Assembly: GCF_988242995.1 (NCBI RefSeq)
Contig: NZ_OZ547043.1
DNA length: 64,000 nucleotides
Direction: 5' to 3' (one strand)
Shown here: positions 44,745 through 59,157 of the stretch, in pieces
Position numbering within the stretch: the first letter of the stretch is position 1
How the letters are laid out: each line of letters starts with the position of its first letter
Position numbers and translations under genes: made by a program
The notes under the pieces: generated by a model
Database searches by the model: none
Seen by the model: the letters and a program-made list of their open reading frames with translations, nothing else
What the model was told of the DNA's origin: nothing

Positions 44745-45683
44745 TCAAATCTGCTTTTCATACAATCGGTAACGCTTGTACGGCTCTGCCCCAATGCGTT
44801 CCAGCATGTTATTCATGCCTGTATTGGTTTCGAGGATCCATGACATTTCCAGCGCATCGATCTTCCGGCGGGCAAACGGATCGCGTAAGGCTTCAATCAA
44901 TAACAGCGCAATCACCGGGCCGATGCGGCTAAACTGATACTCGTCCCGCACGCCCATCAGCGGTACTCGCGCAGTTCGCACACCGCTGACTTTTAAACGC
45001 CACAGCAATTTTGCCCAGCCGAAGGGAAAGAGCGATCCGTTCAGATCGGCAATCGCCTCGTTGATGTTTGGCAAGCCAACAATAAACGCGCAGGGTGCAG
45101 AATCAATCTCAGCGATGTAGATCATATCGTCCGGCACCAGATATTTAAGTTGATCGCCCATAGTCGCGAATTCATGTTCGGTAAACGGCACAAATCCCCA
45201 GTTGTGCTGCCAGCCAGAGTTGAAAATCTCACGCAGGATCTGCATCTCTTCGGCAAACCGCTGGCGATTGATGCAGCGAATGGTCACCTTCTTACGCACC
45301 TGATCCATCAGTTTTTTTAGCGCCGGAGAGAAAGTGAGATCGGTTCGCTGCATCCACCACGCTAGTAAATCAATGCCTTTGTGATAACCCAATTGTTCAA
45401 TATGCGCGGCATACCACGGTTTACCGTGCGGCATCATCGCACAGGGTGGTGTATCGAAACCTTCAATCAGTAATCCGCTTTCCTGATTGATATTCAGGCT
45501 GAAAGGACCGCTGATCTTACTTGCACCTTGTGACTTCAACCACGCTTCCGCTGCGCCAAACAACGCGGCAAAAACCTGCGGATCATCAATGGCGTCAATC
45601 ATGCCGAAATGACCGGTATCTTCACCGTAACGCTCGCGGTGCAAGGTATCTATTTGCACGGTAATACGCCCAACTATCTGCCC
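44745..45683 (-). pseudogene. yghO: yghO, C-terminal 312 codons, separated from its N-terminus by IS4
   Basis: Frame stays open from 45683 down to the stop at 44745 and is in phase with the N-terminal fragment at 47123-47326 once IS4 plus one copy of the target duplication are removed. Confidence 0.75.
45671..45683. repeat. Left copy of the 13-bp IS4 target-site duplication CAACTATCTGCCC
   Basis: Identical 13-mer at 47110-47122 immediately flanking the other IS4 end. Confidence 0.85.
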
Positions 45684-47109
45684 TAATGCCGATCAGTTAA
45701 GGATCAGTTGACCGATCCAGTGGCTGTGTAAGAATCCGGAAACGCTCACTTGTTTCCGGATTTTTTTATGCACATTGGACAGGCTCTTGATCTGGTATCC
45801 CGTTACGATTCTCTGCGTAACCCACTGACTTCTCTGGGGGATTACCTCGACCCCGAACTCATCTCTCGTTGCCTTGCCGAATCAGGTACTGTAACGCTAC
45901 GCAAGCGCCGTCTTCCCCTCGAAATGATGGTCTGGTGTATTGTTGGCATGGCGCTTGAGCGTAAAGAACCTCTTCACCAGATTGTGAATCGCCTGGACAT
46001 CATGCTGCCGGGCAATCGCCCCTTCGTTGCCCCCAGTGCCGTTATTCAGGCCCGCCAGCGCCTGGGAAGTGAGGCTGTCCGCCGCGTGTTCACGAAAACA
46101 GCGCAGCTCTGGCATAACGCCACGCCGCATCCGCACTGGTGCGGCCTGACCCTGCTGGCCATCGATGGTGTGTTCTGGCGCACACCGGATACACCAGAGA
46201 ACGATGCAGCCTTCCCCCGCCAGACACATGCCGGGAACCCGGCGCTCTACCCGCAGGTCAAAATGGTCTGCCAGATGGAACTGACCAGCCATCTGCTGAC
46301 GGCTGCAGCCTTCGGCACGATGAAGAACAGCGAAAATGAGCTTGCTGAGCAACTTATAGAACAAACCGGCGATAACACTCTGACGTTAATGGATAAAGGT
46401 TATTACTCACTGGGACTGTTAAATGCCTGGAGCCTGGCGGGAGAACACCGCCACTGGATGATACCTCTCAGAAAGGGAGCGCAATATGAAGAGATCAGAA
46501 AACTGGGTAAAGGCGATCATCTGGTGAAGCTGAAAACCAGCCCGCAGGCACGAAAAAAGTGGCCGGGACTGGGAAATGAAGTGACTGCCCGCCTGCTGAC
46601 CGTGACGCGCAAAGGAAAAGTCTGCCATCTGCTGACGTCGATGACGGACGCCATGCGCTTCCCCGGAGGAGAAATGGGGGATCTGTACAGTCATCGCTGG
46701 GAAATCGAACTGGGATACAGGGAGATAAAACAGACGATGCAACGGAGCAGGCTGACGCTGAGAAGTAAAAAGCCGGAGCTTGTGGAGCAAGAGCTGTGGG
46801 GTGTCTTACTGGCTTATAATCTGGTGAGATATCAGATGATTAAAATGGCGGAACATCTGAAAGGTTACTGGCCGAATCAACTGAGTTTCTCAGAATCATG
46901 CGGAATGGTGATGAGAATGCTGATGACATTGCAGGGCGCTTCACCGGGACGTATACCGGAGCTGATGCGCGATCTTGCAAGTATGGGACAACTTGTGAAA
47001 TTACCGACAAGAAGGGAAAGGGCCTTCCCGAGAGTGGTAAAGGAGAGGCCCTGGAAATACCCCACAGCCCCGAAAAAGAGCCAGTCAGTTGCTTAACTGA
47101 CTGGCATTA
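45684..47109 (+). mobile_element. IS4, complete 1426-bp copy
   Basis: Terminal inverted repeats TAATGCCGATCAGTTAAG (45684-45701) and CTTAACTGACTGGCATTA (47092-47109); length exactly 1426 bp; flanked by 13-bp direct repeats. Confidence 0.85.
45768..47096 (+). CDS. insG: IS4 transposase (DDE family)
   Basis: 442 aa from [16 protein letters not shown]..., recalled as the IS4 transposase; the track ORF adds six residues upstream. Confidence 0.85.
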
Positions 47110-47326
47110 CAACTATCTGCCCCGCTTTTTTTGCCACCCACGCCTGCCAGATGATATGGTCCGTCCCCGGATTTTTCGCAGACAAATGCTCGTTGCGTTC
47201 AATGAATAAAGGGGGTATCCAGTTTGGATCGTCGGGATAAAGTGATGACGGAAAAGCGATAAATGCCTTAAGGTCATTTTTATTAATTACTTTTTCAATT
47301 TTAATCATCAGCAGATCGCATTCCAT
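47110..47326 (-). pseudogene. yghO: yghO N-terminal fragment (68 codons) plus right copy of the IS4 target duplication
   Basis: MECDLLMIKIEKVINKNDLKAFIAF... reads in frame into the duplicated 13-mer (47110-47122), then terminates inside IS4 in the track ORF. Confidence 0.75.
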
Positions 47327-47697
47327 AGTTCTGTGGGTAACAAATAATTAACGGTGACAAACAGGTTGCAACAGCAACGAACGGCACCTTAATAATCAAC
47401 CCAATGAATACAAACGACGAATAAATAGTATTTATTAATGATTACGATAAGGTTAGAGACTACACAGAAGCGCCACAATGCCTTTTGTCGATTTAAGGCG
47501 ACCGGACAAGGCTTATTCTTAATATATTCATAAATTAAATATCATTCACAATAAAAACAAAAAAACTCAAACTCATTATTTAAATCAATGTTCATTTTCA
47601 CACTGATGAAAATACTATCTCATTTATCTTTTATGCCTATATAATCCACCGCATTATTGTCATTTTATTTTTGATATCCAATTTTTTCGTGGTGTAT

Positions 47698-49422
47698 ATG
47701 TCTAATAAAATCTTTACGCATTCCCTACCTATGCGCTATGCCGATTTTCCAACGCTGGTTGATGCTTTGGACTACGCCGCTCTGAGTAGCGCCGGAATGA
47801 ATTTTTATGACAGACGTTGCCAACTTGAAGATCAACTGGAATATCAGACGTTAAAAGCGCGTGCCGAAGCTGGTGCGAAGCGGTTGTTATCGCTGAACCT
47901 GAAAAAAGGCGATCGCGTGGCGCTGATTGCCGAAACCAGTAGCGGGTTCGTAGAGGCTTTTTTTTCCTGCCAGTATGCCGGCTTAGTCGCCGTCCCGTTG
48001 GCGATTCCAATGGGCGTCGGTCAGCGGGATTCCTGGAGCGCCAAACTGCAGGGTTTACTGGCAAGTTGCCAGCCCGCAGCCATTATCACTGGTGATGAGT
48101 GGTTACCGCTGGTCAATGCCGCGACGCATAACAACAACCCCGAATTACATGTTTTAAGCCACGCCTGGTTTAAGGCATTACCGGAAGCCGATGTTGCGCT
48201 CCAGCGTCCAGTTCCGAACGATATCGCCTACCTCCAGTACACCTCCGGCAGCACCCGTTTTCCCCGTGGCGTCATTATCACCCATCGCGAAGTGATGGCT
48301 AATCTACGTGCTATAAGCCACGATGGCATTAAATTACGCCCTGGCGACCGCTGCGTCTCCTGGCTGCCTTTCTACCATGATATGGGACTGGTCGGCTTTC
48401 TCCTGACCCCCGTCGCCACGCAGCTCTCAGTAGATTATTTGCGCACTCAGGATTTTGCCATGCGTCCTCTGCAATGGCTTAAATTGATCAGTAAAAATCG
48501 CGGCACCGTTTCCGTTGCGCCGCCGTTTGGCTATGAATTGTGCCAGCGCCGCGTGAATGAAAAAGATCTCGCTGAACTGGATCTTTCCTGCTGGCGCGTT
48601 GCTGGTATTGGTGCTGAGCCGATCTCCGCAGAACAACTCCATCAATTCGCTGAATGTTTCCGTCAGGTTAACTTTGACGATAAAACTTTCATGCCGTGCT
48701 ACGGACTGGCAGAAAATGCGCTGGCTGTCAGCTTCTCTGATGAAGCCTCCGGGGTTGTGGTTAACGAAGTGGATCGCGACATCCTTGAATATCAGGGCAA
48801 AGCCGTCGCGCCGGGTGCTGAAACACGCGCCGTATCGACTTTCGTCAACTGCGGTAAAGCGTTGCCGGAACATGGCATTGAAATCCGCAATGAAGCAGGT
48901 ATGCCGGTCGCGGAACGTGTGGTAGGCCATATTTGCATCTCCGGCCCTAGCCTGATGAGCGGTTACTTTGGCGACCAGATTTCACAAGACGAGATTGCCG
49001 CGACGGGCTGGTTAGACACCGGCGACCTCGGTTATCTGCTGGACGGTTATCTGTATGTCACCGGACGCATTAAAGATCTGATTATTATTCGTGGCCGTAA
49101 TATCTGGCCGCAGGATATTGAATATATTGCGGAACAGGAACCGGAAATTCATTCTGGCGATGCGATTGCTTTTGTTACCGCCCAGGAAAAAATCATTCTG
49201 CAGATCCAGTGTAGGATCAGCGACGAAGAACGTCGTGGGCAGCTTATCCACGCACTGGTAGCACGGATCCAAAGCGAATTTGGCGTAACAGCGGCTATCG
49301 ATCTGTTGCCGCCCCACAGTATTCCCCGAACGTCCTCCGGCAAGCCTGCCCGTGCGGAAGCGAAAAAACGTTATCAGAAGGCTTATGCTGCAAGCCTTCA
49401 TGTGCAGGAATCCCTGGCATGA
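47698..49422 (+). CDS. Fatty acyl-AMP ligase / acyl-ACP synthetase-like adenylating enzyme
   Basis: AMP-binding core motif YTSGSTRFPRGV; about 575 aa. Start uncertain (track uses TTG at 47671; first ATG is 47698). Confidence 0.7.
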   Translation: MSNKIFTHSLPMRYADFPTLVDALDYAALSSAGMNFYDRRCQLEDQLEYQTLKARAEAGAKRLLSLNLKKGDRVALIAETSSGFVEAFFSCQYAGLVAVPLAIPMGVGQRDSWSAKLQGLLASCQPAAIITGDEWLPLVNAATHNNNPELHVLSHAWFKALPEADVALQRPVPNDIAYLQYTSGSTRFPRGVIITHREVMANLRAISHDGIKLRPGDRCVSWLPFYHDMGLVGFLLTPVATQLSVDYLRTQDFAMRPLQWLKLISKNRGTVSVAPPFGYELCQRRVNEKDLAELDLSCWRVAGIGAEPISAEQLHQFAECFRQVNFDDKTFMPCYGLAENALAVSFSDEASGVVVNEVDRDILEYQGKAVAPGAETRAVSTFVNCGKALPEHGIEIRNEAGMPVAERVVGHICISGPSLMSGYFGDQISQDEIAATGWLDTGDLGYLLDGYLYVTGRIKDLIIIRGRNIWPQDIEYIAEQEPEIHSGDAIAFVTAQEKIILQIQCRISDEERRGQLIHALVARIQSEFGVTAAIDLLPPHSIPRTSSGKPARAEAKKRYQKAYAASLHVQESLA

Positions 49423-50333
49423 ATCAAACTGTCGCGGTGACGGGCGCTACCGGGTTTATCGGTAAATATATTATCGATAACCTGCTCGCCCGCGGCTTTC
49501 ACGTTCGCGCATTGACGCGTACTGCCCGCGCTCACGTCAATGACAATCTCATCTGGGTGCGCGGTTCTCTGGAAGATACTCATTCACTTAGCGAACTGGT
49601 TGCCGGAGCCAGCGCGGTGGTCCATTGCGCCGGACAAGTGCGCGGGCACAAAGAAGAGATTTTTACCCGCTGTAACGTTGACGGCAGCCTGCGACTGATG
49701 CAAGCGGCAAAAGAGAGCGGCTTTTGCCAACGTTTTCTGTTTATCTCTTCGCTGGCGGCGCGCCATCCCGAACTCTCCTGGTACGCAAATTCCAAACACG
49801 TCGCCGAACAACGGCTGACTGCAATGGCTGATGAAATTACGCTGGGCGTTTTTCGTCCGACAGCCGTGTATGGTCCCGGCGATAAAGAGTTAAAACCGCT
49901 GTTTGACTGGATGCTGCGCGGCCTGCTGCCACGACTTGGTGCGCCAGATACACAACTCTCTTTCCTGCACGTCACCGATTTTGCGCAAGCAGTGGGTCAG
50001 TGGTTAAACGCCGAAACTGTACAGACGCAAACCTATGAATTATGCGATGGCGTCGCTGGCGGCTATGACTGGCAACGCGTACGACAGCTTGCCGCCGAAG
50101 CCCGTTGTGGTTCTGTGCGGATGGTTGGCATTCCTCTGCCGCTACTCACCTGCCTTGCGGATATCAGTACTGCGTTGAGTCGCCTGGCAGGTAAAGAACC
50201 TATGCTGACCCGCTCGAAAATTCGTGAATTAACCCACGCCGACTGGTCGGCAAATAATAACCGTATTTCTGAAGATATTAATTGGTTTCCCGGGATTAGC
50301 CTGGAACACGCATTACGCAACGGGCTATTTTGA
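49419..50333 (+). CDS. NAD(P)-dependent reductase of the extended SDR (epimerase/dehydratase) family
   Basis: N-terminal Rossmann motif TGATGFIG and catalytic YANSK (YxxxK); ATGA overlap with the upstream ligase. Confidence 0.7.
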   Translation: MNQTVAVTGATGFIGKYIIDNLLARGFHVRALTRTARAHVNDNLIWVRGSLEDTHSLSELVAGASAVVHCAGQVRGHKEEIFTRCNVDGSLRLMQAAKESGFCQRFLFISSLAARHPELSWYANSKHVAEQRLTAMADEITLGVFRPTAVYGPGDKELKPLFDWMLRGLLPRLGAPDTQLSFLHVTDFAQAVGQWLNAETVQTQTYELCDGVAGGYDWQRVRQLAAEARCGSVRMVGIPLPLLTCLADISTALSRLAGKEPMLTRSKIRELTHADWSANNNRISEDINWFPGISLEHALRNGLF

Positions 50334-50364
50334 TTGTCTTGTTTAAAGGTGTGTTAACGTTTCT

Positions 50365-50613
50365 ATGGTAAATCGTGAAATAGTAATGGATTACATCCTT
50401 TCCTGTTTACAGGATTTGGTCGAAAACGGTGTGGAAATTAAGCCCGACAGCGATCTCGTCAACGATCTTGGCCTGGAGTCGATCAAAGTGATGGATCTCT
50501 TAATGATGCTGGAAGACAGATTCGATATTTCCATTCCTATTAATATTCTGCTGGATGTCAAAACCCCTGCGCAATTAATGGAAACACTACTTCCATGGCT
50601 GGAGAATAAATAA
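50365..50613 (+). CDS. Acyl carrier protein
   Basis: 82 aa four-helix-sized protein with phosphopantetheine-site-like DLGLESIKVMDL. Confidence 0.65.
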   Translation: MVNREIVMDYILSCLQDLVENGVEIKPDSDLVNDLGLESIKVMDLLMMLEDRFDISIPINILLDVKTPAQLMETLLPWLENK

Positions 50614-51785
50614 TGGGGCTATACGATAAATATGCGCGCCTTGCTGGCGAGCGACTGCAATTTAGTGACAACGGGTTAACACCGTTTGGCACCTGTATTG
50701 ATGAAGTGTATTCCGCCACCGAAGGTCGGATCGGCAATAAAAAAGTGATTCTGGCCGGGACCAATAATTATCTCGGTTTAACCTTTAATCATGATGCCAT
50801 CGCCGAAGGTCAGGCAGCATTAGCGGCCCAAGGCACCGGCACCACCGGTTCTCGTATGGCAAACGGCAGTTATGCGCCGCATCTGGCGTTAGAGAAAGAG
50901 ATCGCCGAGTTTTTTAATCGCCCTACCGCTATCGTTTTTTCAACCGGTTATACCGCTAATTTAGGCGTCATCAGCGCACTTGCCGACCATAACGCCGTGG
51001 TGTTACTGGATGCCGACAGCCACGCCAGTATTTATGACGCCTGTTCTCTCGGTGGCGCGGAAATTATTCGTTTCCGCCATAACGATGCTAAAGATCTGGA
51101 ACGGCGCATGGTTCGCCTCGGTGAACGGGCAAAAGAGGCGATTATCATCGTTGAAGGCATCTACAGTATGCTCGGTGACGTTGCGCCGCTGGCGGAAATT
51201 GTTGATATCAAACGTCGTCTCGGTGGTTATTTGATTGTCGATGAAGCGCATTCGTTTGGCGTGTTAGGCGCAACGGGGCGCGGACTGGCTGAAGCCGTTG
51301 GCGTTGAAGATGATGTGGATATTATCGTTGGTACTTTCAGTAAAAGTCTGGCCTCGATTGGCGGTTTTGCTGTCGGTTCGGAAGCGATGGAAGTGCTGCG
51401 CTACGGCAGCCGCCCGTATATTTTTACCGCCTCTCCTTCTCCGTCCTGCATTGCGACCGTGCGCTCGTCGTTAAGAACCATTGCTACACAACCAGAGTTG
51501 CGGCAAAAGCTGATGGATAATGCCAACCATCTGTATGACGGTCTGCAAAAACTGGGTTATGAGTTAAGTTCACATATTAGCCCGGTAGTGCCAGTAATAA
51601 TCGGTTCGAAAGAGGAAGGTTTACGCATCTGGCGCGAGCTTATTTCGCTGGGCGTTTATGTGAATCTTATCCTGCCACCTGCCGCGCCTGCAGGCATCAC
51701 GCTGCTGCGCTGTAGCGTAAACGCTGCCCACAGTCGTGAGCAAATCGATGCCATCATTCAGGCATTTGCTACTCTGAAGCAGTAA
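50613..51785 (+). CDS. PLP-dependent alpha-oxoamine synthase (serine palmitoyltransferase / 8-amino-7-oxononanoate synthase family)
   Basis: 390 aa with the family blocks FSTGYTANLG, HASIYDA, DEAHSFGVLG and the PLP-lysine motif GTFSKSLASIGGF; TAATG overlap with the ACP gene. Confidence 0.75.
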   Translation: MGLYDKYARLAGERLQFSDNGLTPFGTCIDEVYSATEGRIGNKKVILAGTNNYLGLTFNHDAIAEGQAALAAQGTGTTGSRMANGSYAPHLALEKEIAEFFNRPTAIVFSTGYTANLGVISALADHNAVVLLDADSHASIYDACSLGGAEIIRFRHNDAKDLERRMVRLGERAKEAIIIVEGIYSMLGDVAPLAEIVDIKRRLGGYLIVDEAHSFGVLGATGRGLAEAVGVEDDVDIIVGTFSKSLASIGGFAVGSEAMEVLRYGSRPYIFTASPSPSCIATVRSSLRTIATQPELRQKLMDNANHLYDGLQKLGYELSSHISPVVPVIIGSKEEGLRIWRELISLGVYVNLILPPAAPAGITLLRCSVNAAHSREQIDAIIQAFATLKQ

Positions 51786-51790
51786 TGTGA

Positions 51791-51819
51791 GCCCGCTGTG
51801 GTGCTGCGCCACGGCGGGT
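51791..51819. terminator. Hairpin between convergent stop codons, probable bidirectional terminator
   Basis: GCCCGCTGTGG...CCACGGCGGGT imperfect inverted repeat occupying the whole gap between the synthase stop (51783-51785) and the permease stop (51820-51822). Confidence 0.4.
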
Positions 51820-52899
51820 TTAATGTTGACTGTCATACCAATACACCAGGCTCAACGCCACCAGCACAAACACTATCGGTAAACCGAGCGCGGTAACAGG
51901 TGCGCTCAACGCAAATAACAATCCCAGATTGACCATGATTTGATAGCTGATCCAGGTGAGTAAGCCAACGATGACGCCTACAGCGAGACGGCTACCCATC
52001 CCTGGCGAGCGCGGGGCGCTAAAGGTAAACGGCACAGCCAGCAAAATCATCGCCAGAGTTAAGATGGGTTGCCCCAGTTTTTCCCACAGTGCAAGGCGGT
52101 AATCGCTGCTGGGTTGCCCGGTTTCCTGCAAATAATGGATGTAATGATTAAGCTGACGGACAGAAAAAGTATTCCCCGGCATCGATAACTCTTCAAGATC
52201 CATACTGGTGAAGGCCGATTGCCAGGCAAGATTATCTGATGTTTCCAGCGTTTCTTTGCCATTCAACCATTTTTTATGATTCACACCATGCAGGATCCAC
52301 GTTTTGTCGTCTTCAATGGAGGCACTGCGTGCAAAAATGTAGGATTCGAGCGAGAGATCGTCGCGATAATGAAATATCTCCACGCCCACAGGCTGGCCCT
52401 GCTCGTTCAGCGATTTCACCGTCACAAATTCATTACCGCGCCTGGCCCAAAGCATATTGCCGGTAATGTCATCGTCCTCCCCCAACGCGGTGGCAGTCGA
52501 TTTGATTTGCAGCGCCTGTTGCTGCAATGGCGACGCCACCCACTCATCTATCGCGCCTAACGAAACAGTCCACAATATCCCGGCAACCAGCGCCACCAGT
52601 GCAATACGGAAGATAGAAAACCCAGTGCTGCGAATGGCGGTAAGCTCACTGTTTTTCGATAACTGCCCCAGGCCAACAATCCCTCCCAATAATGCGATAA
52701 ACGGCGAAAGTTCGACCAGTGTACGCGGTAAGGTCATCAGCACCACCAGCACCGCCTGAGTCCAGCGATAACCACCCGGGCTGACATCATCCAGTTCGTT
52801 AATCAGGTTGAAGGTGGTAAAAAGCGGCAGCAATAGCCCTGCGGCGGCGGCAAAACCGAGAAAGAGATGACGGATTAAATAGCGACTGAAAACATTCAT
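51820..52899 (-). CDS. LptG/LptF-family (YjgP/YjgQ) permease, second of a pair
   Basis: Start set to MNVFSRYLIRHLF (ATGA overlap with the upstream paralogue); six-helix permease-like hydrophobicity with a large periplasmic loop. Confidence 0.65.
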   Translation of the reverse strand: MNVFSRYLIRHLFLGFAAAAGLLLPLFTTFNLINELDDVSPGGYRWTQAVLVVLMTLPRTLVELSPFIALLGGIVGLGQLSKNSELTAIRSTGFSIFRIALVALVAGILWTVSLGAIDEWVASPLQQQALQIKSTATALGEDDDITGNMLWARRGNEFVTVKSLNEQGQPVGVEIFHYRDDLSLESYIFARSASIEDDKTWILHGVNHKKWLNGKETLETSDNLAWQSAFTSMDLEELSMPGNTFSVRQLNHYIHYLQETGQPSSDYRLALWEKLGQPILTLAMILLAVPFTFSAPRSPGMGSRLAVGVIVGLLTWISYQIMVNLGLLFALSAPVTALGLPIVFVLVALSLVYWYDSQH

Positions 52900-53966
52900 C
52901 GGGAAAATTTCTGCAGCAATGAGAAGTCGCGTGCGACCAGCATCAGCAGGCCCATTAGCATGAGTCCGGGTACTAACCACAAACCAGGAATGAGGGGAAT
53001 CGCGCCGTTAGCCACCAGCGTACGGCAGACGTCGCCGCCATAAAAAATGGCAATAAACAGCAACGTCAGTGGCAATAATGTTGAAAATCGCCCTTGCCGC
53101 GGTTTTACCCGACTTAATGAAATGGCCAGCAGCGCCATCAACAATGCTGTCAGGCCACGGCTTTGTCGCCATTGCAGTTCGGCATGATCGGCTGGAAAGA
53201 CGGAGCGCGCCAGCTCCGTGACCGATTTTGCTTTGCGTTTGACGTTAGGGCTTTGATCCAGCGGATTCAGATGTAATTGCAGATTACGGTAGATCTGTTC
53301 GTTGTCGTCACGCCCCTGATGATCGAGAAGATAGGCGGTCCCGTTATGCAACATAACGGTCGGTTTCTCAGGTGATGGGTCAACCACATCAACCGAACGG
53401 GCGCGGAAAATGCGGGTTCGATTGGCAGTAGAAGTATAAATCAGCGCGTCAGTCAGGCGATTATTATCCTGATCAACCGTCTGCGAAAGGATCATTCGTC
53501 CGTTATCGTTAGTGTTAAATTTCTTTGCCCGCAACTGGCGAACATCCAGCTCCGACTGTGACTGTTGCTCCAGTTGATAAATCTGCGCATAAGCCCACGG
53601 ACGACCATACATCGACAGAAGGGTGACAAAAATACTTAGCGGTATCGCCAGATAAAGAACGGCTTTGTACAAGCGTCCCGGACTGCCCCCCGCCGCAGAA
53701 ATAGCGGTAATTTCCGAGTCGGTATACATCTGCCCTAGCGTCACGCCAACTGACACATACAGTCCAACAGGTAACAACATCTCCAGTGCAATCAGCACCT
53801 TGTAGAAAACAATATCCAGCACAACATCAAGAGCTAATGTCCCATTTGCCGCTTCGGTCAGATAACGCTGTGCGGAGTAGCTGGCGAAAATAAAGATCAG
53901 AAAACCGACGATAATCAGCACCAGACGGCGCGTACCACGCATGATGTAGTGTTCAACCAGCTTCAT
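52896..53966 (-). CDS. LptF/LptG-family (YjgP/YjgQ) permease, first of a pair
   Basis: 356 aa beginning MKLVEHYIMRGTRRLVLIIVGFLIF, same family architecture as the downstream paralogue. Confidence 0.65.
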   Translation of the reverse strand: MKLVEHYIMRGTRRLVLIIVGFLIFIFASYSAQRYLTEAANGTLALDVVLDIVFYKVLIALEMLLPVGLYVSVGVTLGQMYTDSEITAISAAGGSPGRLYKAVLYLAIPLSIFVTLLSMYGRPWAYAQIYQLEQQSQSELDVRQLRAKKFNTNDNGRMILSQTVDQDNNRLTDALIYTSTANRTRIFRARSVDVVDPSPEKPTVMLHNGTAYLLDHQGRDDNEQIYRNLQLHLNPLDQSPNVKRKAKSVTELARSVFPADHAELQWRQSRGLTALLMALLAISLSRVKPRQGRFSTLLPLTLLFIAIFYGGDVCRTLVANGAIPLIPGLWLVPGLMLMGLLMLVARDFSLLQKFSR

Positions 53967-53996: not shown

Positions 53997-54560
53997 TTAT
54001 TCATTGATCAGTTTCTGCGCCAGCGCAATGACATGTTCTACCTCTTCCGGCGTCAGGCTGCCGTCCTTTGCCCACTGAATTTGCCCGGCTTTATTCAGCA
54101 CCAGAATGGTTGAACTCTGCTCCGGCAACCGCCAGGCAACGCGTCCCTGTCCATTGCCGTCAATAACGAATTGCGCCCACGGATAGCGGCGTTTATTTTT
54201 TTCGATTTTGCCAACGACAAAATAGCCAGTACCAAAAATGGCATCATCGGTGTTCACAATGGTGGTGGGCTGAAAACGATCCTGCGGAAAGTTTGCCGCT
54301 TCAACCGCTTTAATTAACAGTGAGTTCTTTTTCTTCGCCGACTTACGCCCGGCGATATACTGAATAATGCGAACTTTTCCCGCCAGCTGTGTGCTGTTCC
54401 ACTTTTGGTAGTGAATTTCGTCGTCGCTATTCAGAAGCAGCTCGCCGCCTTCCTGGATATAAACAGGGGTAACCGTTTTGCCAGTGACGAAATTGTGTGC
54501 CTGCACACCCGGGGCTAAGAGCATGATAATCAGCGCAATAATCAAACGAGATGACATCAT
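53997..54560 (-). CDS. Secreted/periplasmic protein, YtfJ-like
   Basis: 187 aa with cleavable signal peptide (MMSSRLIIALIIMLLAPGVQA); family assignment is from recall only. Confidence 0.45.
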   Translation of the reverse strand: MMSSRLIIALIIMLLAPGVQAHNFVTGKTVTPVYIQEGGELLLNSDDEIHYQKWNSTQLAGKVRIIQYIAGRKSAKKKNSLLIKAVEAANFPQDRFQPTTIVNTDDAIFGTGYFVVGKIEKNKRRYPWAQFVIDGNGQGRVAWRLPEQSSTILVLNKAGQIQWAKDGSLTPEEVEHVIALAQKLINE

Positions 54561-54568
54561 TGCTCCGG

Positions 54569-55393
54569 TTATAGCGGAAAACGCGAAATCAGCAGCTCTA
54601 AGCGCTGGCGAATATCGCTATCCAGCGCCACCGGTGCATCATACGACTGGCGGTTTTCCATATCATCCGCCACCATGTCGTCGTGTTTATCCCCCATCAG
54701 GCCATTAATGGCGGCGAGGAAGCGGGAAATCTGTAACGCCTCTTTATTTTCAGGATCAAGCGATCTTAGGGTGTCGTAATAAGAAACCTGCTGGCTGATG
54801 ATTTTTCGCACATCATGAAATTCCCTGCCAGTTAGTCGCGGTTTGGCAATTATCTCTTTCAGGGTATGCATTTGCTTTTGCCGATAGGCAATAAAACCGC
54901 TTACGCTTTCTAACTGGCTATGGCGTAATGAATAGTTCACCAACGACCAGACCGGAGAGCTTAAATAAACCCGTAACAGGTTGCCGTAATACGACACAAT
55001 ATTTTTCTTACCGTTACGAAAGCCGTCCTGAAAACGCCCCAAAAAAACGGTCGTTTTGCCGAATAAAAATCCGGCCTGATGCTTTTTTAAATACAGCCGT
55101 TGCGCAAAACGCAGGTGCTTGTAGCGCGCTCGCATGTATTTAAATTGTTTGCGCTCATCAGCAGTCAGCTCATCGCCTTTGGCCTGTTTGCATATTAAAC
55201 GCAGTAACTCCTGGCGATTGACGCCATTGAGCCAGAATTGCAGGCATAACGCGTAATTATCATGGATGATTTCGGTGGTACAACTTAGTGCGATAGTCGG
55301 CGGCAAACTGACCTGTGCATCAACGACATCATCTTCTTCAATCGCAACAAATAGACGCTCGCTAGCCTCAAGCGGGAAATATTTTCTCATCAT
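54569..55393 (-). CDS. Conserved hypothetical protein, no recognised domain
   Basis: 274 aa basic soluble protein; 1-bp overlap with the upstream flippase gene. Confidence 0.45.
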   Translation of the reverse strand: MMRKYFPLEASERLFVAIEEDDVVDAQVSLPPTIALSCTTEIIHDNYALCLQFWLNGVNRQELLRLICKQAKGDELTADERKQFKYMRARYKHLRFAQRLYLKKHQAGFLFGKTTVFLGRFQDGFRNGKKNIVSYYGNLLRVYLSSPVWSLVNYSLRHSQLESVSGFIAYRQKQMHTLKEIIAKPRLTGREFHDVRKIISQQVSYYDTLRSLDPENKEALQISRFLAAINGLMGDKHDDMVADDMENRQSYDAPVALDSDIRQRLELLISRFPL

Positions 55394-56742
55394 CAGGATT
55401 TCTCTCCGGCTGCGTTATAAAGCAAGGAATGGCGCTGAAAAAATGCCTTTAAGGTTGGAATTAGCGAGAGCACCACATCCAGACATTGCCCAGCGAAGTA
55501 AGCAAATGCAGCCCCCAGCACGCCAAACAGATGACAGAACATGAACAGCAATACGATGTAGCCGATTGAGGCGATGGTTTGCGCCACGAGAAAAGCACGC
55601 TGTTTTCCCGCCATCAATAGCAATGACTCCTGTGGGAAGCCCAGCATCGAAATCACAATTGCGCCCAGCATCACCTGAATCAGGTCATACGCTTCGAGAT
55701 ACTTAACGCCAAACACCAGCGAAATGAGCGGCTTGCCGACGATCAACACCGCGAGCGCCACCAGAATACCGATTCCGCCCGCCAGTAAACCGGACTTCAC
55801 GCCTAACAACCACGGTCTGGTGGTGCGCGGATCTAAACGCATCACCTCTGGGTAAAAACTTTTACCCAGTAAACCCGCTGGCGTTCCGGCGGCGTCGAAG
55901 AATGTCATGGCGATTTTAAATAACCCGGCGGCAGCGGGTCCTAACACGATCCCCACCAACACTGTGCTGCACGAGTTACGTGCCGACCAGATGGAGTGGG
56001 CAATGTTGGTTGACCAGACAAAACTCCACGCGCCTTTAATGTGTCGGGCAGACTCAAACAGATTCAATTTGAAGGCGTTATGGATATTTCTGCGGCGTAA
56101 TTCGCGCGCGGCAAACCACCAGTACATGGTGCCGCCAACCAGATTCGACACGTACCAGGCAATAACAAAACCCGCAAAACCAAAGTCAAAATACCAGGCT
56201 ACGACGCTCCCCGCTGCGCGCAGAAAAGGTTTCGTCGCTTGCTGTACAGCAATTAGATCGAAGCGATCTACCGCACGCAGAATGCCGGTCGGCGTGGAGG
56301 AAGCCATTGAAGGAATGAGCGTGCAATACAGCGCGGCCAGCCAAAAGCTTTGGTCATCCAGACCTAATGAATGGGAAAGAAAAGGGAGTAAGGCAATGCC
56401 GCCGACAATCGCCACCGCGCCGCTGACGATATCCAGCGAGAAGGAAAATGAGACGACATTGCGGAATTGCTGCGGATTATTGTTGGTTAATGCTGGTGTT
56501 CCGTACTGCACCACCAACTGCCATGTCTGAAACTTAATAAAATCGCTGATCGACTTGGCGTACGATTGCACAATCACCAGTACGCCAAACATGGCGGGCG
56601 TCATCCCTTTACCGGCACACGAGAGCGCCAACAAACCCAGCAAGGCGCTCACGACATTACTGGAGCCTAACCAGGCGCTATTGCGAATAATGGTGCGAAA
56701 CGCGCCATCTGCAAACCAATGTTTGATGTTAAAACCCGCCAA
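55393..56742 (-). CDS. yghQ: Wzx-like (MOP superfamily) flippase
   Basis: 449 aa polytopic protein with N-terminal IIRNSAWLGSSNVVSALLGLLAL typical of polysaccharide-biosynthesis flippases; adjacent to yghR. Confidence 0.6.
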   Translation of the reverse strand: MAGFNIKHWFADGAFRTIIRNSAWLGSSNVVSALLGLLALSCAGKGMTPAMFGVLVIVQSYAKSISDFIKFQTWQLVVQYGTPALTNNNPQQFRNVVSFSFSLDIVSGAVAIVGGIALLPFLSHSLGLDDQSFWLAALYCTLIPSMASSTPTGILRAVDRFDLIAVQQATKPFLRAAGSVVAWYFDFGFAGFVIAWYVSNLVGGTMYWWFAARELRRRNIHNAFKLNLFESARHIKGAWSFVWSTNIAHSIWSARNSCSTVLVGIVLGPAAAGLFKIAMTFFDAAGTPAGLLGKSFYPEVMRLDPRTTRPWLLGVKSGLLAGGIGILVALAVLIVGKPLISLVFGVKYLEAYDLIQVMLGAIVISMLGFPQESLLLMAGKQRAFLVAQTIASIGYIVLLFMFCHLFGVLGAAFAYFAGQCLDVVLSLIPTLKAFFQRHSLLYNAAGEKS

Positions 56743-56787: not shown

Positions 56788-57546
56788 TTAAGTTAAACTT
56801 CGGCGGTCAGAAACGATGGCAACCAGAGAAACCGCCTTCTGTGCCTGTTCCAGCACCTCGCTGTAAGGCGCTCTGGAATCAATCTCAAGAATTTTTGTGC
56901 CGTTATAGCCAATCGTCGACATGACGCCGATTTTGTCCTGCAGCTCGGCATAGTCATGGTCAGGCTTGCGGGAGATGGCAGTATCAATATCAATCCCCAA
57001 GCGAATGATTAATTCAGGACGGTATTGCGCCATTTGTTGGTATAAACGCCGTTCGCGCTGCGCCAGAAACATGCTGATTTTCCCGGTCGCACGTTCGACG
57101 CCGATCCCCGGTCCGTCATAATAAAAGCCCGAAATTTCAGCCTGCGGGAAGCGATCGCTGACCACCAGAACGCCACTTTGCGCCAGTCGCTGAACCTTGC
57201 GTAGATTCGCCATTCTTCGCAGCGAGAAGCAGTACATAATCACCGCCGCCCATAGCGCTGGAGATTTGGTTTTCATGCTTTGGGTTTTCGAGGATTTGGC
57301 CGCCAGTCGCCGTTCGAGCCAGACGCCAACCAACGGCAATCGTTTGATTTTGTCGCCGTCTTCGCCGGAGAGCAGCCCCAAATAGCGGCGCTCGGTTTGC
57401 CAGTGTTGTTGCAGCGATTTCACCAGGTCGGTGGTCAGCGTGGATTTACCGGTGCCATCACACCCGACCACCGCAATCAGCCCCGGAATGTAGTTGGGCT
57501 GCGGCACGGTTGTACTATTAACAGTTTGTGTTTGTAGTGCATCCAT
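56788..57546 (-). CDS. yghR: P-loop NTPase, thymidylate-kinase-like putative kinase
   Basis: 252 aa with N-terminal Walker A VVGCDGTGKSTL; paralogue of the next two genes. Confidence 0.7.
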   Translation of the reverse strand: MDALQTQTVNSTTVPQPNYIPGLIAVVGCDGTGKSTLTTDLVKSLQQHWQTERRYLGLLSGEDGDKIKRLPLVGVWLERRLAAKSSKTQSMKTKSPALWAAVIMYCFSLRRMANLRKVQRLAQSGVLVVSDRFPQAEISGFYYDGPGIGVERATGKISMFLAQRERRLYQQMAQYRPELIIRLGIDIDTAISRKPDHDYAELQDKIGVMSTIGYNGTKILEIDSRAPYSEVLEQAQKAVSLVAIVSDRRSLT

Positions 57547-57577
57547 TCGTTAAATCATCCCCTATCCATTTTGGTGA

Positions 57578-58291
57578 TCAGGAAAGCGCGGCGTGAATTG
57601 CGCGTAGTGACGCTTGCATAATTTCATCGGCTGGTTGCCGACCATCCAGTTCAAGGATCCTGGCGCCATTGAATGTCAGTTGCGGCGTAACGGCGATTTT
57701 TTCCTGTAACGCCGCCAGTTGATGGTCAGGTTTACGCGAAAACGCGGTTTGTTCATCAATGCCAAGACGAATCAACAATACGGGCAAATAAGACGCCATC
57801 CATTGGTACAGCTTCAGCTCGCGCTGCCTTAACATTTTTATCCAGCCGTTACCGCCCGTGGTTTTTGCCAATTGCGGGCCATCAAAGCGAAAACCCGGCA
57901 CTTCAACCTGCGGGTAGCGGTCGGTGATGAGCAGATAGCCTTGCTGGCTTTTACACAACATTTTGCGAAACTTGTACGCCCGCCAGCAGGAAAGCAGATA
58001 GATAACCAGCGCAGTAATATTGCCAGGCGGTGTTAAGGGCTTTTCGTGCACATGTGCCGCTTTACTTCGCAAATAACGCCCAAAAGGTGCGCCAATAACA
58101 GGGAGCTGTGAAATCCATTCGCCAATTCGCCCGGACGATTGCCCGAGATAAATGTGTTCTGTTGGCATTGTTGCTGCCAGTTCATTTACCAGGCTTGCCG
58201 TGAGGGTCGATTTACCTGAACCATCACATCCTACAATGGCAATAACACGCACTGGCGTGGAATTAATTATTGACATATTACGTTGATTCAC
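57578..58291 (-). CDS. yghS: P-loop NTPase, thymidylate-kinase-like putative kinase
   Basis: 237 aa, Walker A IVGCDGSGKSTL; collinear with yghR. Confidence 0.7.
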   Translation of the reverse strand: MNQRNMSIINSTPVRVIAIVGCDGSGKSTLTASLVNELAATMPTEHIYLGQSSGRIGEWISQLPVIGAPFGRYLRSKAAHVHEKPLTPPGNITALVIYLLSCWRAYKFRKMLCKSQQGYLLITDRYPQVEVPGFRFDGPQLAKTTGGNGWIKMLRQRELKLYQWMASYLPVLLIRLGIDEQTAFSRKPDHQLAALQEKIAVTPQLTFNGARILELDGRQPADEIMQASLRAIHAALS

Positions 58292-58464
58292 GAAAAACCC
58301 GGCAGCAAATAATGTATTGAATATTACGTGGTCCGTGCTCAGAATATCCGTTCAACCTTATTGTGACAATGGTTAATTGTGACATTGACCTGAATTACGC
58401 TTTCATAAAAACATATTAACCAAATAAATATTTTTAATGGATATTTAAATTAAAGGATATATTC

Positions 58465-59157
58465 ATGCAGTCAATAACACCTCCATTAATTGCCGTTATT
58501 GGTAGCGATGGTTCAGGCAAGTCAACGGTGTGTGAACATCTCATTACCGTTGTCGAAAAATATGGTGCTGCCGAAAGAGTTCATTTAGGAAAACAGGCCG
58601 GAAATGTCGGTCGTGCAGTGACAAAATTACCGTTGATGGGAAAATCCTTACATAAAACAATTGAACGAAATCAGGTGAAAACAGCAAAAAAATTGCCAGG
58701 ACCAGTTCCGGCGCTGGTAATTACAGCGTTTGTCGCCCGTCGCTTACTGCGCTTTCGTCATATGCTTGCCTGTCGTCGTCGCGGGTTAATTGTTCTAACC
58801 GACCGTTATCCTCAGGACCAAATTCCTGGCGCTTACGATGGTACAGTGTTCCCGCCTAACGTTGAAGGCGGCCGGTTTGTCTCATGGCTGGCAAGCCAGG
58901 AACGTAAAGCGTTTCACTGGATGGCGAGCCATAAACCTGATCTGGTCATCAAACTCAATGTCGATCTGGACGTGGCCTGCGCGCGTAAGCCTGACCACAA
59001 AAGAGAATCGCTGGAAAGGAAGATAGCCATAACGCCACAGTTAACCTTTGGAGGCGCGCAACTGGTTGATATCGATGCCAATCAACCGCTGGAACAAGTG
59101 CTGGTTGATGCGGAAAAAGCGATTACGGATTTTATGACCGCGCGTGGTTATCACTAG
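58465..59157 (+). CDS. yghT: P-loop NTPase, thymidylate-kinase-like putative kinase
   Basis: 230 aa, Walker [13 protein letters not shown]; divergent from yghS. Confidence 0.7.

Follow-up and report, generated by a model that had tools for sequence, protein, structure and literature searches.

An intact core operon and an IS4-interrupted yghO gene in the probable sphingolipid locus of Escherichia coli

Four adjoining genes, aasR, epi (a cerR homologue), acpR, and spt, very probably form the core operon of the Escherichia coli sphingolipid (dihydroceramide) locus, with a five-step pathway. We examined them within a window of 64,000 nucleotides from contig NZ_OZ547043.1 (assembly GCF_988242995.1). 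The four-gene block is already in the literature as the core of the sphingolipid pathway of E. coli, and the sole twist of the present genome is that the neighboring ceramide synthase gene, yghO, is broken by IS4. An original prediction, made from the DNA letters alone, had proposed a sphingoid-base pathway that was uncharacterized in this organism. Its functional part was right, including the enzyme logic (fatty acid to dedicated ACP, PLP-dependent condensation with an amino acid, and keto-reduction) and the analogy to bacterial sphingolipid producers. Its novelty part was wrong, as the pathway has already been published in E. coli: biochemical work has been done on BL21(DE3) orthologues that are 96 to 100% identical (PMC9386255), the ligase has been crystallized (3PBK) and has served as a model FAAL (PMC8460268), and the synthase already carries the PGAP/RefSeq gene name spt. 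A unit of four genes was also an incomplete description; the real unit includes the divergent yghO and the convergent lptG2/lptF2 (10.64898/2026.04.12.717747). The features of the region are as follows:

44745..45670, minus strand: yghO 3' part (codons 73-380), a ceramide synthase (bCerS/"aca") homologue severed by IS4
45684..47109, plus strand: IS4 element of 1426 bp, recognized by its junctions and terminal inverted repeats (TAATGCC...)
47110..47326, minus strand: yghO 5' part, codons 1-72 plus one base
47327..47697, no strand: intergenic region between the divergent yghO and aasR, AT-rich (~35% GC), the presumed promoter region
47698..49422, plus strand: aasR, fatty acyl-AMP ligase and dedicated acyl-AcpR synthetase (EcFAAL), from NCBIfam, PDB, and BL21 identity
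49419..50333, plus strand: epi (cerR homologue), extended-SDR, NDUFA9-like reductase, from motifs, relatives, and BL21 identity
50365..50613, plus strand: acpR, specialized acyl carrier protein, from BL21 identity and sub-cutoff ACP models
50613..51785, plus strand: spt, serine palmitoyltransferase with PLP lysine K244, from NF047599, 2jg2, and BL21 identity
51783..51828, no strand: stem-loop between the convergent spt and lptG2, overlapping the lptG2 3' end
51820..52899, minus strand: lptG2, LptG paralog and proposed sphingolipid exporter permease (TIGR04408, 307 bits)
52896..53966, minus strand: lptF2, LptF paralog and lptG2 partner (TIGR04407, 318 bits)
53997..54560, minus strand: ytfJ-like, a second YtfJ-family gene, accessory (TIGR01626, 212 bits)
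54569..55393, minus strand: gene for a 274-aa accessory protein
55393..56742, minus strand: yghQ, MOP/Wzx-type flippase-like membrane protein, truncated in K-12
56788..57546, minus strand: yghR, P-loop kinase with a dTMP-kinase fold
57578..58291, minus strand: yghS, P-loop kinase with a dTMP-kinase fold
58465..59157, plus strand: yghT, P-loop kinase with a dTMP-kinase fold

The core consists of four intact, overlapping, same-strand ORFs at 47698-51785 on the plus strand, with no internal stop in any of them, as had been described from the sequence. Both overlaps named at that time are present, ATGA at 49419-49422 (4 bp, epi with aasR) and TAATG at 50611-50615 (1 bp, spt with acpR), and so are the motifs YTSGSTRFPRGV, TGATGFIG, YANSK (Tyr122/Lys126), and GTFSKS (Lys244). 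ORF lengths equal those of the annotated orthologues, the sole exception being one extra Asn near ligase residue 145. Because the ligase and synthase reach 870 and 600 bits against their NCBIfam models, and because dN/dS versus BL21 is 0.04-0.14 across the four core genes, we consider these ORFs to be real genes and not chance. Judged by sequence, they are identifiable as aasR, epi, acpR, and spt, with 96-100% identity to E. coli BL21(DE3) ECD_02851-02854.

In our profile search, the aasR product (574 aa counted from ATG; other possible starts lie upstream at GTG 47689 and TTG 47671) exceeded the cutoff of 600 bits for NF006624 with its score of 870. It also matched PDB 3PBK, a long-chain FAAL crystallized with lauroyl-adenylate, with 1290 bits over its full length, and it is 98.2% identical to ECD_02851. 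The operon's first gene product is the same protein as the crystallized model enzyme EcFAAL (Zhang et al. 2011; PMC8460268). A check for inactivating substitutions found all seven FAAL-specific residues, which obstruct the CoA pocket and leave the ACP pocket accessible, intact: T80, P104, W222, M229, T250, R256, and F277 correspond to EcFAAL T83, P107, W224, M231, T252, R258, and F279. EcFAAL charges holo-"EcACP" (that paper's name) and refuses CoA (PMC8460268), and AasR-Ec is functional with AcpR-Ec in vivo (PMC9386255). Studies of EcFAAL have handled the enzyme as a model FAAL, without a tie to sphingolipid synthesis, and the word is absent from PMC8460268.

The carrier, AcpR (82 aa), is identical to ECD_02853 at 82/82 positions. 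The same check for inactivating substitutions found its conserved serine present, Ser39 within GLES, which is the 4'-phosphopantetheine site; the BL21 carrier has been shown to bear 4'-phosphopantetheine and incorporates beta-alanine (PMC9386255). ACP models matched AcpR only below their own cutoffs in the profile search, as expected because AcpR is a specialized ACP. The acpR gene lies directly 5' of spt, and the same order is found in 42 distant loci.

Spt (390 aa) passed the NCBIfam equivalog NF047599 with its 600 bits (cutoff, 500), its closest solved structure is the Sphingomonas SPT 2jg2 (E 8e-112), and it is identical to BL21 ECD_02854 at 388/390 residues (99.5%). Against the alpha SPT equivalog it scored 430 bits, under the cutoff of 670, and the NCBI class is the "beta-proteobacterial" SPT equivalog. 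Its residues H137, D210, H213, K244, and R366 are invariant across 42 homologues and align with H159, D231, H234, K265, and R390 of SpSPT (Sphingomonas paucimobilis/S. wittichii SPT; 2jg2, 2x8u), so that the PLP-site His/Asp/His/Lys and the carboxylate-binding Arg390 equivalent are kept. The BL21 synthase converts L-[14C]serine to a product co-migrating with 3-oxo-sphinganine and prefers an acyl-carrier over acyl-CoA, and co-expression of three BL21 core proteins yields 3-oxo-sphinganine (PMC9386255).

In the proposed pathway, AasR, unable to use CoA, would adenylate a long-chain fatty acid and load it onto the 4'-phosphopantetheine of AcpR Ser39, as shown for identical or near-identical orthologues. 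Spt, with PLP on Lys244, would condense acyl-AcpR with L-serine to give 3-oxo-sphinganine and CO2, as demonstrated for the BL21 enzyme (99.5% identical). The tandem-GNAT acyl-CoA N-acyltransferase YghO would attach a second acyl chain, a role suggested by its homology with Caulobacter CC_1154/bCerS (stated in PMC9386255), its fold, and its gene context. Epi/CerR would reduce the 3-keto group, before or after N-acylation, a point disputed in the literature. The original prediction took the free 3-keto amine as the substrate of reduction; the Klein laboratory reports that N-acylation precedes reduction (PMC11087976). Lastly, LptF2/LptG2, with the housekeeping LptB as their probable source of power, would extract the lipid from the inner membrane toward the outer membrane, as suggested by Caulobacter data in a 2026 preprint (10.64898/2026.04.12.717747).

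Epi (304 aa; 96.1% identical to ECD_02852) carries both GxxGxxG and YxxxK (TGATGFIG and Y122xxxK126), and among solved structures it is closest to NDUFA9-type SDRs. In distant loci, too, the gene sits between aasR and acpR, and it adjoins spt in 29/50 of them. Homology and context in E. coli, for Epi as for YghO, suggest that it would reduce the 3-keto group of either oxidized ceramide or 3-oxo-sphinganine. One observation counts against this role: CerR of Caulobacter is reported to reside in the periplasm (PMC11087976), whereas no signal peptide is visible in the Epi sequence, in which the Rossmann motif begins at residue 8.

The YghO protein has a GNAT-type acyl-CoA N-acyltransferase fold, and yghO is linked with spt, aasR, and lptF2/G2 across taxa (48/50 loci with full flanks), with the divergent layout kept. 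In the present genome its ORF is not intact. IS4 lies within codon 73 of 380, flanked by a 13-bp target duplication, CAACTATCTGCCC, at 45671-45683 and 47110-47122, and the frame of the 5' fragment runs into the element and ends after five foreign codons. The transposase ORF (45750-47096) matches the NCBIfam IS4 transposase with 299 bits, and the IS4-yghO junction occurs in 0/5426 complete E. coli genomes. The insertion, which the original prediction had overlooked, leaves the yghO-aasR intergenic region untouched; a promoter scan of that region gave no signal above chance, and we assigned no promoter. With yghO interrupted by IS4 at codon 73, we predict that ceramide synthesis in this genome does not proceed past its first step: expression of the operon should take the pathway only as far as 3-oxo-sphinganine or sphinganine, and no ceramide should form.

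This break also bears on whether the locus matters to its host at all. The locus may be enzymatically competent and yet physiologically cryptic, that is, silent in ordinary conditions, dispensable, repeatedly lost or broken, and with no native product that matters. Besides the interrupted yghO, the control region is AT-rich, as silenced loci typically are, no sphingolipid-like band is seen for BL21 harboring empty vectors (PMC9386255), and we found no report of a sphingolipid in wild-type E. coli in the literature searched. The block is missing in K-12, as the original prediction had stated: in MG1655, yghO and yghQ are both truncated, with IS5 (insH9) in place of everything that lay between them. 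However, although ~25% of complete E. coli genomes are without the full locus, all 13 kb are intact in the other 75%, and dN/dS is 0.02-0.14 for every locus gene, which indicates sustained purifying selection. The same block is also conserved in Hafnia, Citrobacter, Pseudocitrobacter, Shimwellia, Erwinia, and others, in differing chromosomal contexts, and its GC content is host-like, so it is not a recent foreign insert. We regard a cryptic locus as unlikely, though far from negligible.

We give far less credence to a product other than a ceramide precursor, such as a free sphingoid base, a 1-deoxy long-chain base built on alanine or glycine, or a CqsA-type alpha-amino-ketone signal. PMC10196870 describes SPTs as accepting alanine or glycine weakly, no end product has so far been identified in E. 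coli, and Arg378 in the serine-carboxylate loop of the Sphingomonas enzyme (RPPATP) is absent from Spt, where the residue is Leu354 (LPPAAP). However, this position is L/I/V/F in 42/42 clade homologues, among them those from loci that hold a complete set of ceramide genes, and serine is a working substrate for the 99.5% identical enzyme (PMC9386255); the Arg378 feature is therefore specific to Sphingomonas rather than family-wide. Vibrio CqsA (the CAI-1 synthase), BioF, Kbl, and HemA have the PLP-dependent alpha-oxoamine synthase fold and chemistry in common with Spt, but they differ in substrates and gene contexts, and Spt misses all their curated cutoffs (bioF, kbl, CqsA, and ALAS). For CqsA, the NF005526 score is 221 bits (cutoff, 428), and hits to CqsA structures have E ~1e-35 (7e-35), compared with ~1e-112 for SPT; the CqsA-type signal and generic aminolipid alternatives raised in the original prediction are excluded by these family scores. 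Linkage to the bCerS homologue and LptF2/G2 likewise points to a membrane ceramide. Practically no belief is merited by a further reading, in which Spt would be a BioF (biotin) or Kbl (threonine degradation) paralog of redundant function and the operon would feed a small-molecule pathway; it draws on the common alpha-oxoamine synthase superfamily and on some database entries that still say 8-amino-7-oxononanoate synthase. As far as sequence data and published assays reach, it is refuted: Spt scores 334 bits for bioF (TIGR00858; cutoff, 426) and 298 for Kbl (NF005394; cutoff, 460) but passes the SPT equivalog, it is partnered with a long-chain FAAL that has a lauroyl-adenylate structure and with a dedicated ACP (PMC8460268), and 3-oxo-sphinganine formation has been shown by experiment (PMC9386255).

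The sphingolipid operon that we favor and E. coli BL21(DE3) ECD_02850-02854 (yghO/aca, aasR, epi, acpR, spt; Padilla-Gomez et al. 2022, PMC9386255) represent one locus of one species. They agree fully in gene order, overlaps, and neighbors, with proteins that are 96-100% identical, although BL21 has an intact yghO and lacks the extra ligase Asn. Caulobacter crescentus has the same five biosynthetic functions plus an LptF/G paralog pair in one locus (spt CC_1162, acpR CC_1163, epi/cerR CC_1164, aasR CC_1165, aca/bCerS CC_1154, and lptG2/lptF2 CC_1155/1156). AasR, AcpR, and Spt operate alike in the two systems, and SPT-Ec accepts acyl-AcpR-Cc (PMC9386255), but AasR-Ec fails to acylate AcpR-Cc. 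The Caulobacter head-group genes cpgABC (CpgB is a DAGK-type ceramide kinase) and lptC2 are absent from the E. coli locus, which instead has ytfJ-like, the 274-aa protein gene, yghQ, and yghR/S/T. Sphingolipids have been demonstrated natively in Caulobacter, in contrast to E. coli.

A second LptF/LptG pair lies inside the locus, with products 99.7% (LptF2) and 98.1% (LptG2) identical to those of BL21, and it adjoins yghO homologues in 38/50 loci; for sphingolipid transport by LptF2/G2, the data come from Caulobacter (10.64898/2026.04.12.717747). The remaining genes form an accessory module restricted to Enterobacterales. Within it, ytfJ-like is seen in enterobacterial loci only, and the gene for the 274-aa protein, which has no match in Pfam, NCBIfam, PADLOC, or PDB, occurs in enterobacterial loci and two Luteibacter loci. 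The three paralogous kinases (56788..59157) travel with the locus, and their part in the sphingolipid system is uncertain. YghQ has a weak NCBIfam MOP flippase match and orthologues that bear Pfam Polysacc_synt, and the Caulobacter locus holds a putative flippase, CC_1166 (PMC11324152). The stem-loop between spt and lptG2 has a dG of -28.3 kcal/mol (z -5.3), with 0/200 shuffles folding equally well, and is probably a bidirectional terminator.

The four-gene core in the window is part of the E. coli sphingolipid operon, an already known system that adds little as a discovery. The original prediction had placed four same-strand genes here, and we found all four as open reading frames (ORFs) with no internal stops:

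47698-49422, plus strand: aasR, adenylating enzyme (fatty acyl-AMP ligase), 574 aa
49419-50333, plus strand: epi, extended SDR (cerR homologue), 304 aa
50365-50613, plus strand: acpR, acyl carrier protein, 82 aa, with a serine at position 39
50613-51785, plus strand: spt, alpha-oxoamine synthase (serine palmitoyltransferase, SPT), 390 aa

The core ORFs match the annotated orthologues in length, except that the ligase has one extra Asn. The two predicted couplings (ATGA at 49419-49422 and TAATG at 50611-50615) were both found in the sequence, as were all four motifs quoted for the ligase, the SDR (TGATGFIG and YANSK), and the synthase (GTFSKS).

Profile-HMM searches, proposed earlier as a check, upheld the reading of the synthase and the ligase. 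Against the NCBI curated models, the synthase passed the SPT equivalog NF047599 (600 bits versus a cutoff of 500) and fell below the cutoff of each of the models for BioF, Kbl, CqsA, and ALAS, while the ligase passed the model for fatty acyl-AMP ligases (870 bits versus a cutoff of 600). In a PDB comparison, the solved structures closest to the synthase were those of Sphingomonas SPT (E 8e-112), with Kbl and BioF (~1e-55) and CqsA (~1e-35) far behind, and alignment to 2jg2 showed that the PLP lysine K244, His137, Asp210, His213, and Arg366 are conserved. The ligase matched PDB 3PBK, crystallized as "E. coli FAAL," over its full length at 1290 bits, and it keeps 7 of the 7 residues shown or proposed to exclude CoA and let in the ACP arm (PMC8460268). 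Epi contains both GxxGxxG and Y122xxxK126, and the solved structures closest to it are NDUFA9-type subunits of complex I, the same affinity that has been reported for Caulobacter CerR (PMC11087976). We found no signal peptide in the E. coli Epi sequence.

The claim that such a pathway was uncharacterized in this organism did not hold: the ligase has been crystallized, three of the BL21(DE3) orthologues have been assayed, and RefSeq already labels the four products fatty acyl-AMP ligase, NAD-dependent epimerase/dehydratase, acyl carrier protein, and spt: serine palmitoyltransferase. Padilla-Gomez et al. (2022) described ECD_02851 (aasR), ECD_02852 (epi), ECD_02853 (acpR), and ECD_02854 (spt) of BL21(DE3) and took the divergent neighbor yghO (ECD_02850) as the N-acyltransferase "aca" (PMC9386255). 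In that study, AcpR-Ec bore 4'-phosphopantetheine, coexpression of AasR-Ec, AcpR-Ec, and SPT-Ec yielded a lipid migrating as 3-oxo-sphinganine, and extracts with SPT-Ec used L-[14C]serine and preferred palmitoyl-AcpR over palmitoyl-CoA or acyl-AcpP (PMC9386255). The window proteins are close to those of BL21 (AasR, 98.2% identity; Epi, 96.1%; AcpR, 82/82; Spt, 388/390), the five genes downstream of the core are 98 to 99.7% identical to their BL21 counterparts, and the exact AasR protein of the window is on record from E. coli isolates.

One residue of Spt raised the potential that the enzyme is inactive or has a changed amino acid specificity. Arg378 of Sphingomonas SPT, which lies in the RPPATP loop and which we take to contact the serine carboxylate, aligns to Leu354 of the window Spt. 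We rejected this possibility, as 42 of the 42 Spt homologues adjoining YghO-family genes have L, I, V, or F there and activity with serine has been measured (PMC9386255). The catalytic residues are invariant across those 42 homologues. Leu354 is thus a clade trait. It is compatible with the measured SPT activity, and, going by these alignments, an Arg378-type arginine is not a general SPT feature.

The sphingoid-base reading was right in kind, but it was too narrow in extent, given that yghO and the convergent LptG and LptF paralogs lptG2 and lptF2 also belong to the locus. AasR would adenylate a long-chain fatty acid and load it onto AcpR, as demonstrated for identical or near-identical orthologues, and Spt would condense acyl-AcpR with serine into 3-oxo-sphinganine, as demonstrated for a 99.5% identical enzyme. 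YghO may then N-acylate the base, Epi/CerR may reduce the 3-keto group, and LptF2/G2, by analogy with Caulobacter, may export the lipid. The order of N-acylation and reduction is disputed, with reduction placed first by Olea-Ozuna and Padilla-Gomez, and acylation first, with a periplasmic CerR, by Stankeviciute and Uchendu (PMC11087976). In Caulobacter, LptF2 and LptG2 make up a complex and bind to the housekeeping LptB, and their deletion is tolerated only in cells lacking spt; the 2026 preprint reporting this shows the E. coli UTI89 locus in its Figure 2B (10.64898/2026.04.12.717747).

Several observations indicate that the locus is maintained. At least 80% of the four-gene block occurs in ~4,067 of 5,426 complete E. 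coli genomes, and the complete 13-kb locus from yghO to yghT occurs in 4,051 of them (75%). Values of dN/dS between the window lineage and BL21 were 0.02 to 0.14 for all ten genes compared. Most E. coli, including the expression host BL21, therefore carry a complete sphingolipid locus under selection, and K-12 does not, a difference relevant to lipidomics and to heterologous sphingolipid studies. The suggestion that K-12 lacks the block proved correct: in MG1655, yghO and yghQ are both truncated, with IS5 (insH9) between them in place of the block. Against an active locus, our literature search turned up no sphingolipid reported from wild-type E. coli, and none was seen in BL21 carrying empty vectors (PMC9386255).

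The same block is present in Hafnia and Citrobacter amalonaticus with other flanking genes. We considered recent horizontal transfer and rejected it: the contexts do differ among Enterobacterales, yet a host-like GC content of ~52% gives it no compositional support. Promoter and terminator consensus scans of 47100-52000 returned 8 hits versus 5.8 expected and 6 versus 5.5 expected in shuffled sequence, counts not above chance, so we assigned no promoter. The one hairpin that stands out in this interval lies 3' of spt and is probably a bidirectional terminator:

51783-51828: hairpin between the convergent spt and lptG2, overlapping the lptG2 3' end (dG -28.3 kcal/mol, z -5.3)

In the window, yghO itself is interrupted by an insertion sequence:

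45684-47109: IS4, 1,426 bp (transposase, 299 bits), with the 13-bp target duplication CAACTATCTGCCC
44745-45670 and 47110-47326: yghO fragments, split by IS4 in codon 73 of 380

When IS4 was removed in silico, the restored YghO was identical to that of BL21 at 378 of 380 positions. The insertion looks recent, because dN/dS of the restored gene versus BL21 is only 0.026. We did not find the IS4/yghO junction in any of the 5,426 complete E. coli genomes, and this IS4 copy shares only ~97% identity with the common E. coli form of the element. The rest of the locus, including the intergenic region between yghO and aasR, is intact. With only yghO broken, we predict that the long-chain base precursor would be made and the ceramide would not. 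The genome is a natural yghO insertion mutant, and the intermediate that accumulates in it could help to settle whether N-acylation or reduction comes first.

Searches of Pfam, NCBIfam, PADLOC, and PDB sequences returned no named family for YghO. Its homologues form a large family of their own, with 1,118 representatives at E <= 1e-30. Scanning species-representative genomes with a conserved stretch from an eight-sequence YghO alignment yielded 80 loci, from Enterobacterales, Pseudomonas, Salinicola, Nitrococcus, Nitrosomonas, Nitrosospira, Nitrospira, Gemmatimonadota, Desulfobacterales, Geobacteraceae, and others. We limited linkage counts to the 50 loci whose 10-kb flanks were complete, and 48 of these had spt/aasR and/or the lptF2/lptG2 pair near the YghO homologue (Spt in 30, LptF2/G2 in 38, both in 22). 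Across these phyla, yghO is kept divergent to aasR-epi-acpR-spt. This linkage and arrangement lend independent support to the published view that YghO is the ceramide synthase partner. The yghO of K-12 MG1655 (locus L002, 6044-9409) is annotated as a "putative DNA-binding transcriptional regulator," a label that is probably wrong, as fold prediction and gene context point to a tandem-GNAT N-acyltransferase. Directly beside the Hafnia yghO homologue (locus L005, 4478-5206) is a gene for an Sfp-type 4'-phosphopantetheinyl transferase (4PPT_N plus ACPS), possibly the activator of AcpR; the E. coli locus contains no such gene.

Only the putative accessory module, for which we found no functional literature, has some potential for novelty. 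It would comprise yghQ and the following genes:

53997-54560, minus strand: ytfJ-like, a second YtfJ-family gene, between lptF2 and the 274-aa gene
54569-55393, minus strand: gene for a 274-aa protein
56788-59157: yghR, yghS, and yghT, three paralogous kinases with a dTMP-kinase fold

The ytfJ-like gene is limited to enterobacterial loci, and its product, predicted to have a signal-like hydrophobic segment at its N terminus, may work with LptF2/G2 in the periplasm; searches of Pfam, NCBIfam, PADLOC, and PDB gave only the YtfJ family name. The 274-aa protein had zero matches in the same four databases. Its gene is kept within the locus in Enterobacterales and appears elsewhere only in two Luteibacter loci (L075 and L083), where the homologue is 51% identical and adjoins a YghO homologue, with no spt within 10 kb. 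YghQ-like flippases occur in a few other loci. The locus also contains genes resembling yghR/S/T in Erwinia, Rosenbergiella, and Mangrovibacter, in one betaproteobacterium (53 to 54% identity), and, weakly, in Pseudomonas marginalis (~36%) (loci L013, L017, L022, L024, and L050). K-12 has kept yghR/S/T despite losing the biosynthetic genes.

We considered and rejected homology of YghR/S/T to CpgB, the ceramide kinase of Caulobacter, which is of the DAGK/LCB5 type with a GGDG motif, whereas YghS has a thymidylate/deoxynucleoside-type kinase fold, unlike lipid kinases. A broader proposal, which we consider rather unlikely, is that Enterobacterales have their own version of the system, in which the core and a lineage-restricted module (ytfJ-like, the 274-aa gene, the MOP flippase-like YghQ, and YghR/S/T) that replaces the Caulobacter head group genes would make and export a possibly phosphorylated or decorated sphingolipid in most E. 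coli under undiscovered conditions. If so, the K-12 orphan genes yghQ/R/S/T would be leftovers of an enterobacterial sphingolipid system.

Elsewhere in the window, positions 25001-45683 hold the gsp genes for type II secretion, sslE, and the glycolate operon glc, and no complete E. coli genome matches this stretch at better than ~98% identity, so this lineage is without a close complete E. coli reference. Positions 1-25000 hold a capsule gene cluster that starts with a kpsF-like gene (1568-2587), is ~98.7% identical to that of E. coli 042, and reaches at least 80% coverage in only 12 complete genomes. Just beyond the region matching E. coli 042, at 335-754, lies a gene fragment that by eye resembles an IS transposase.
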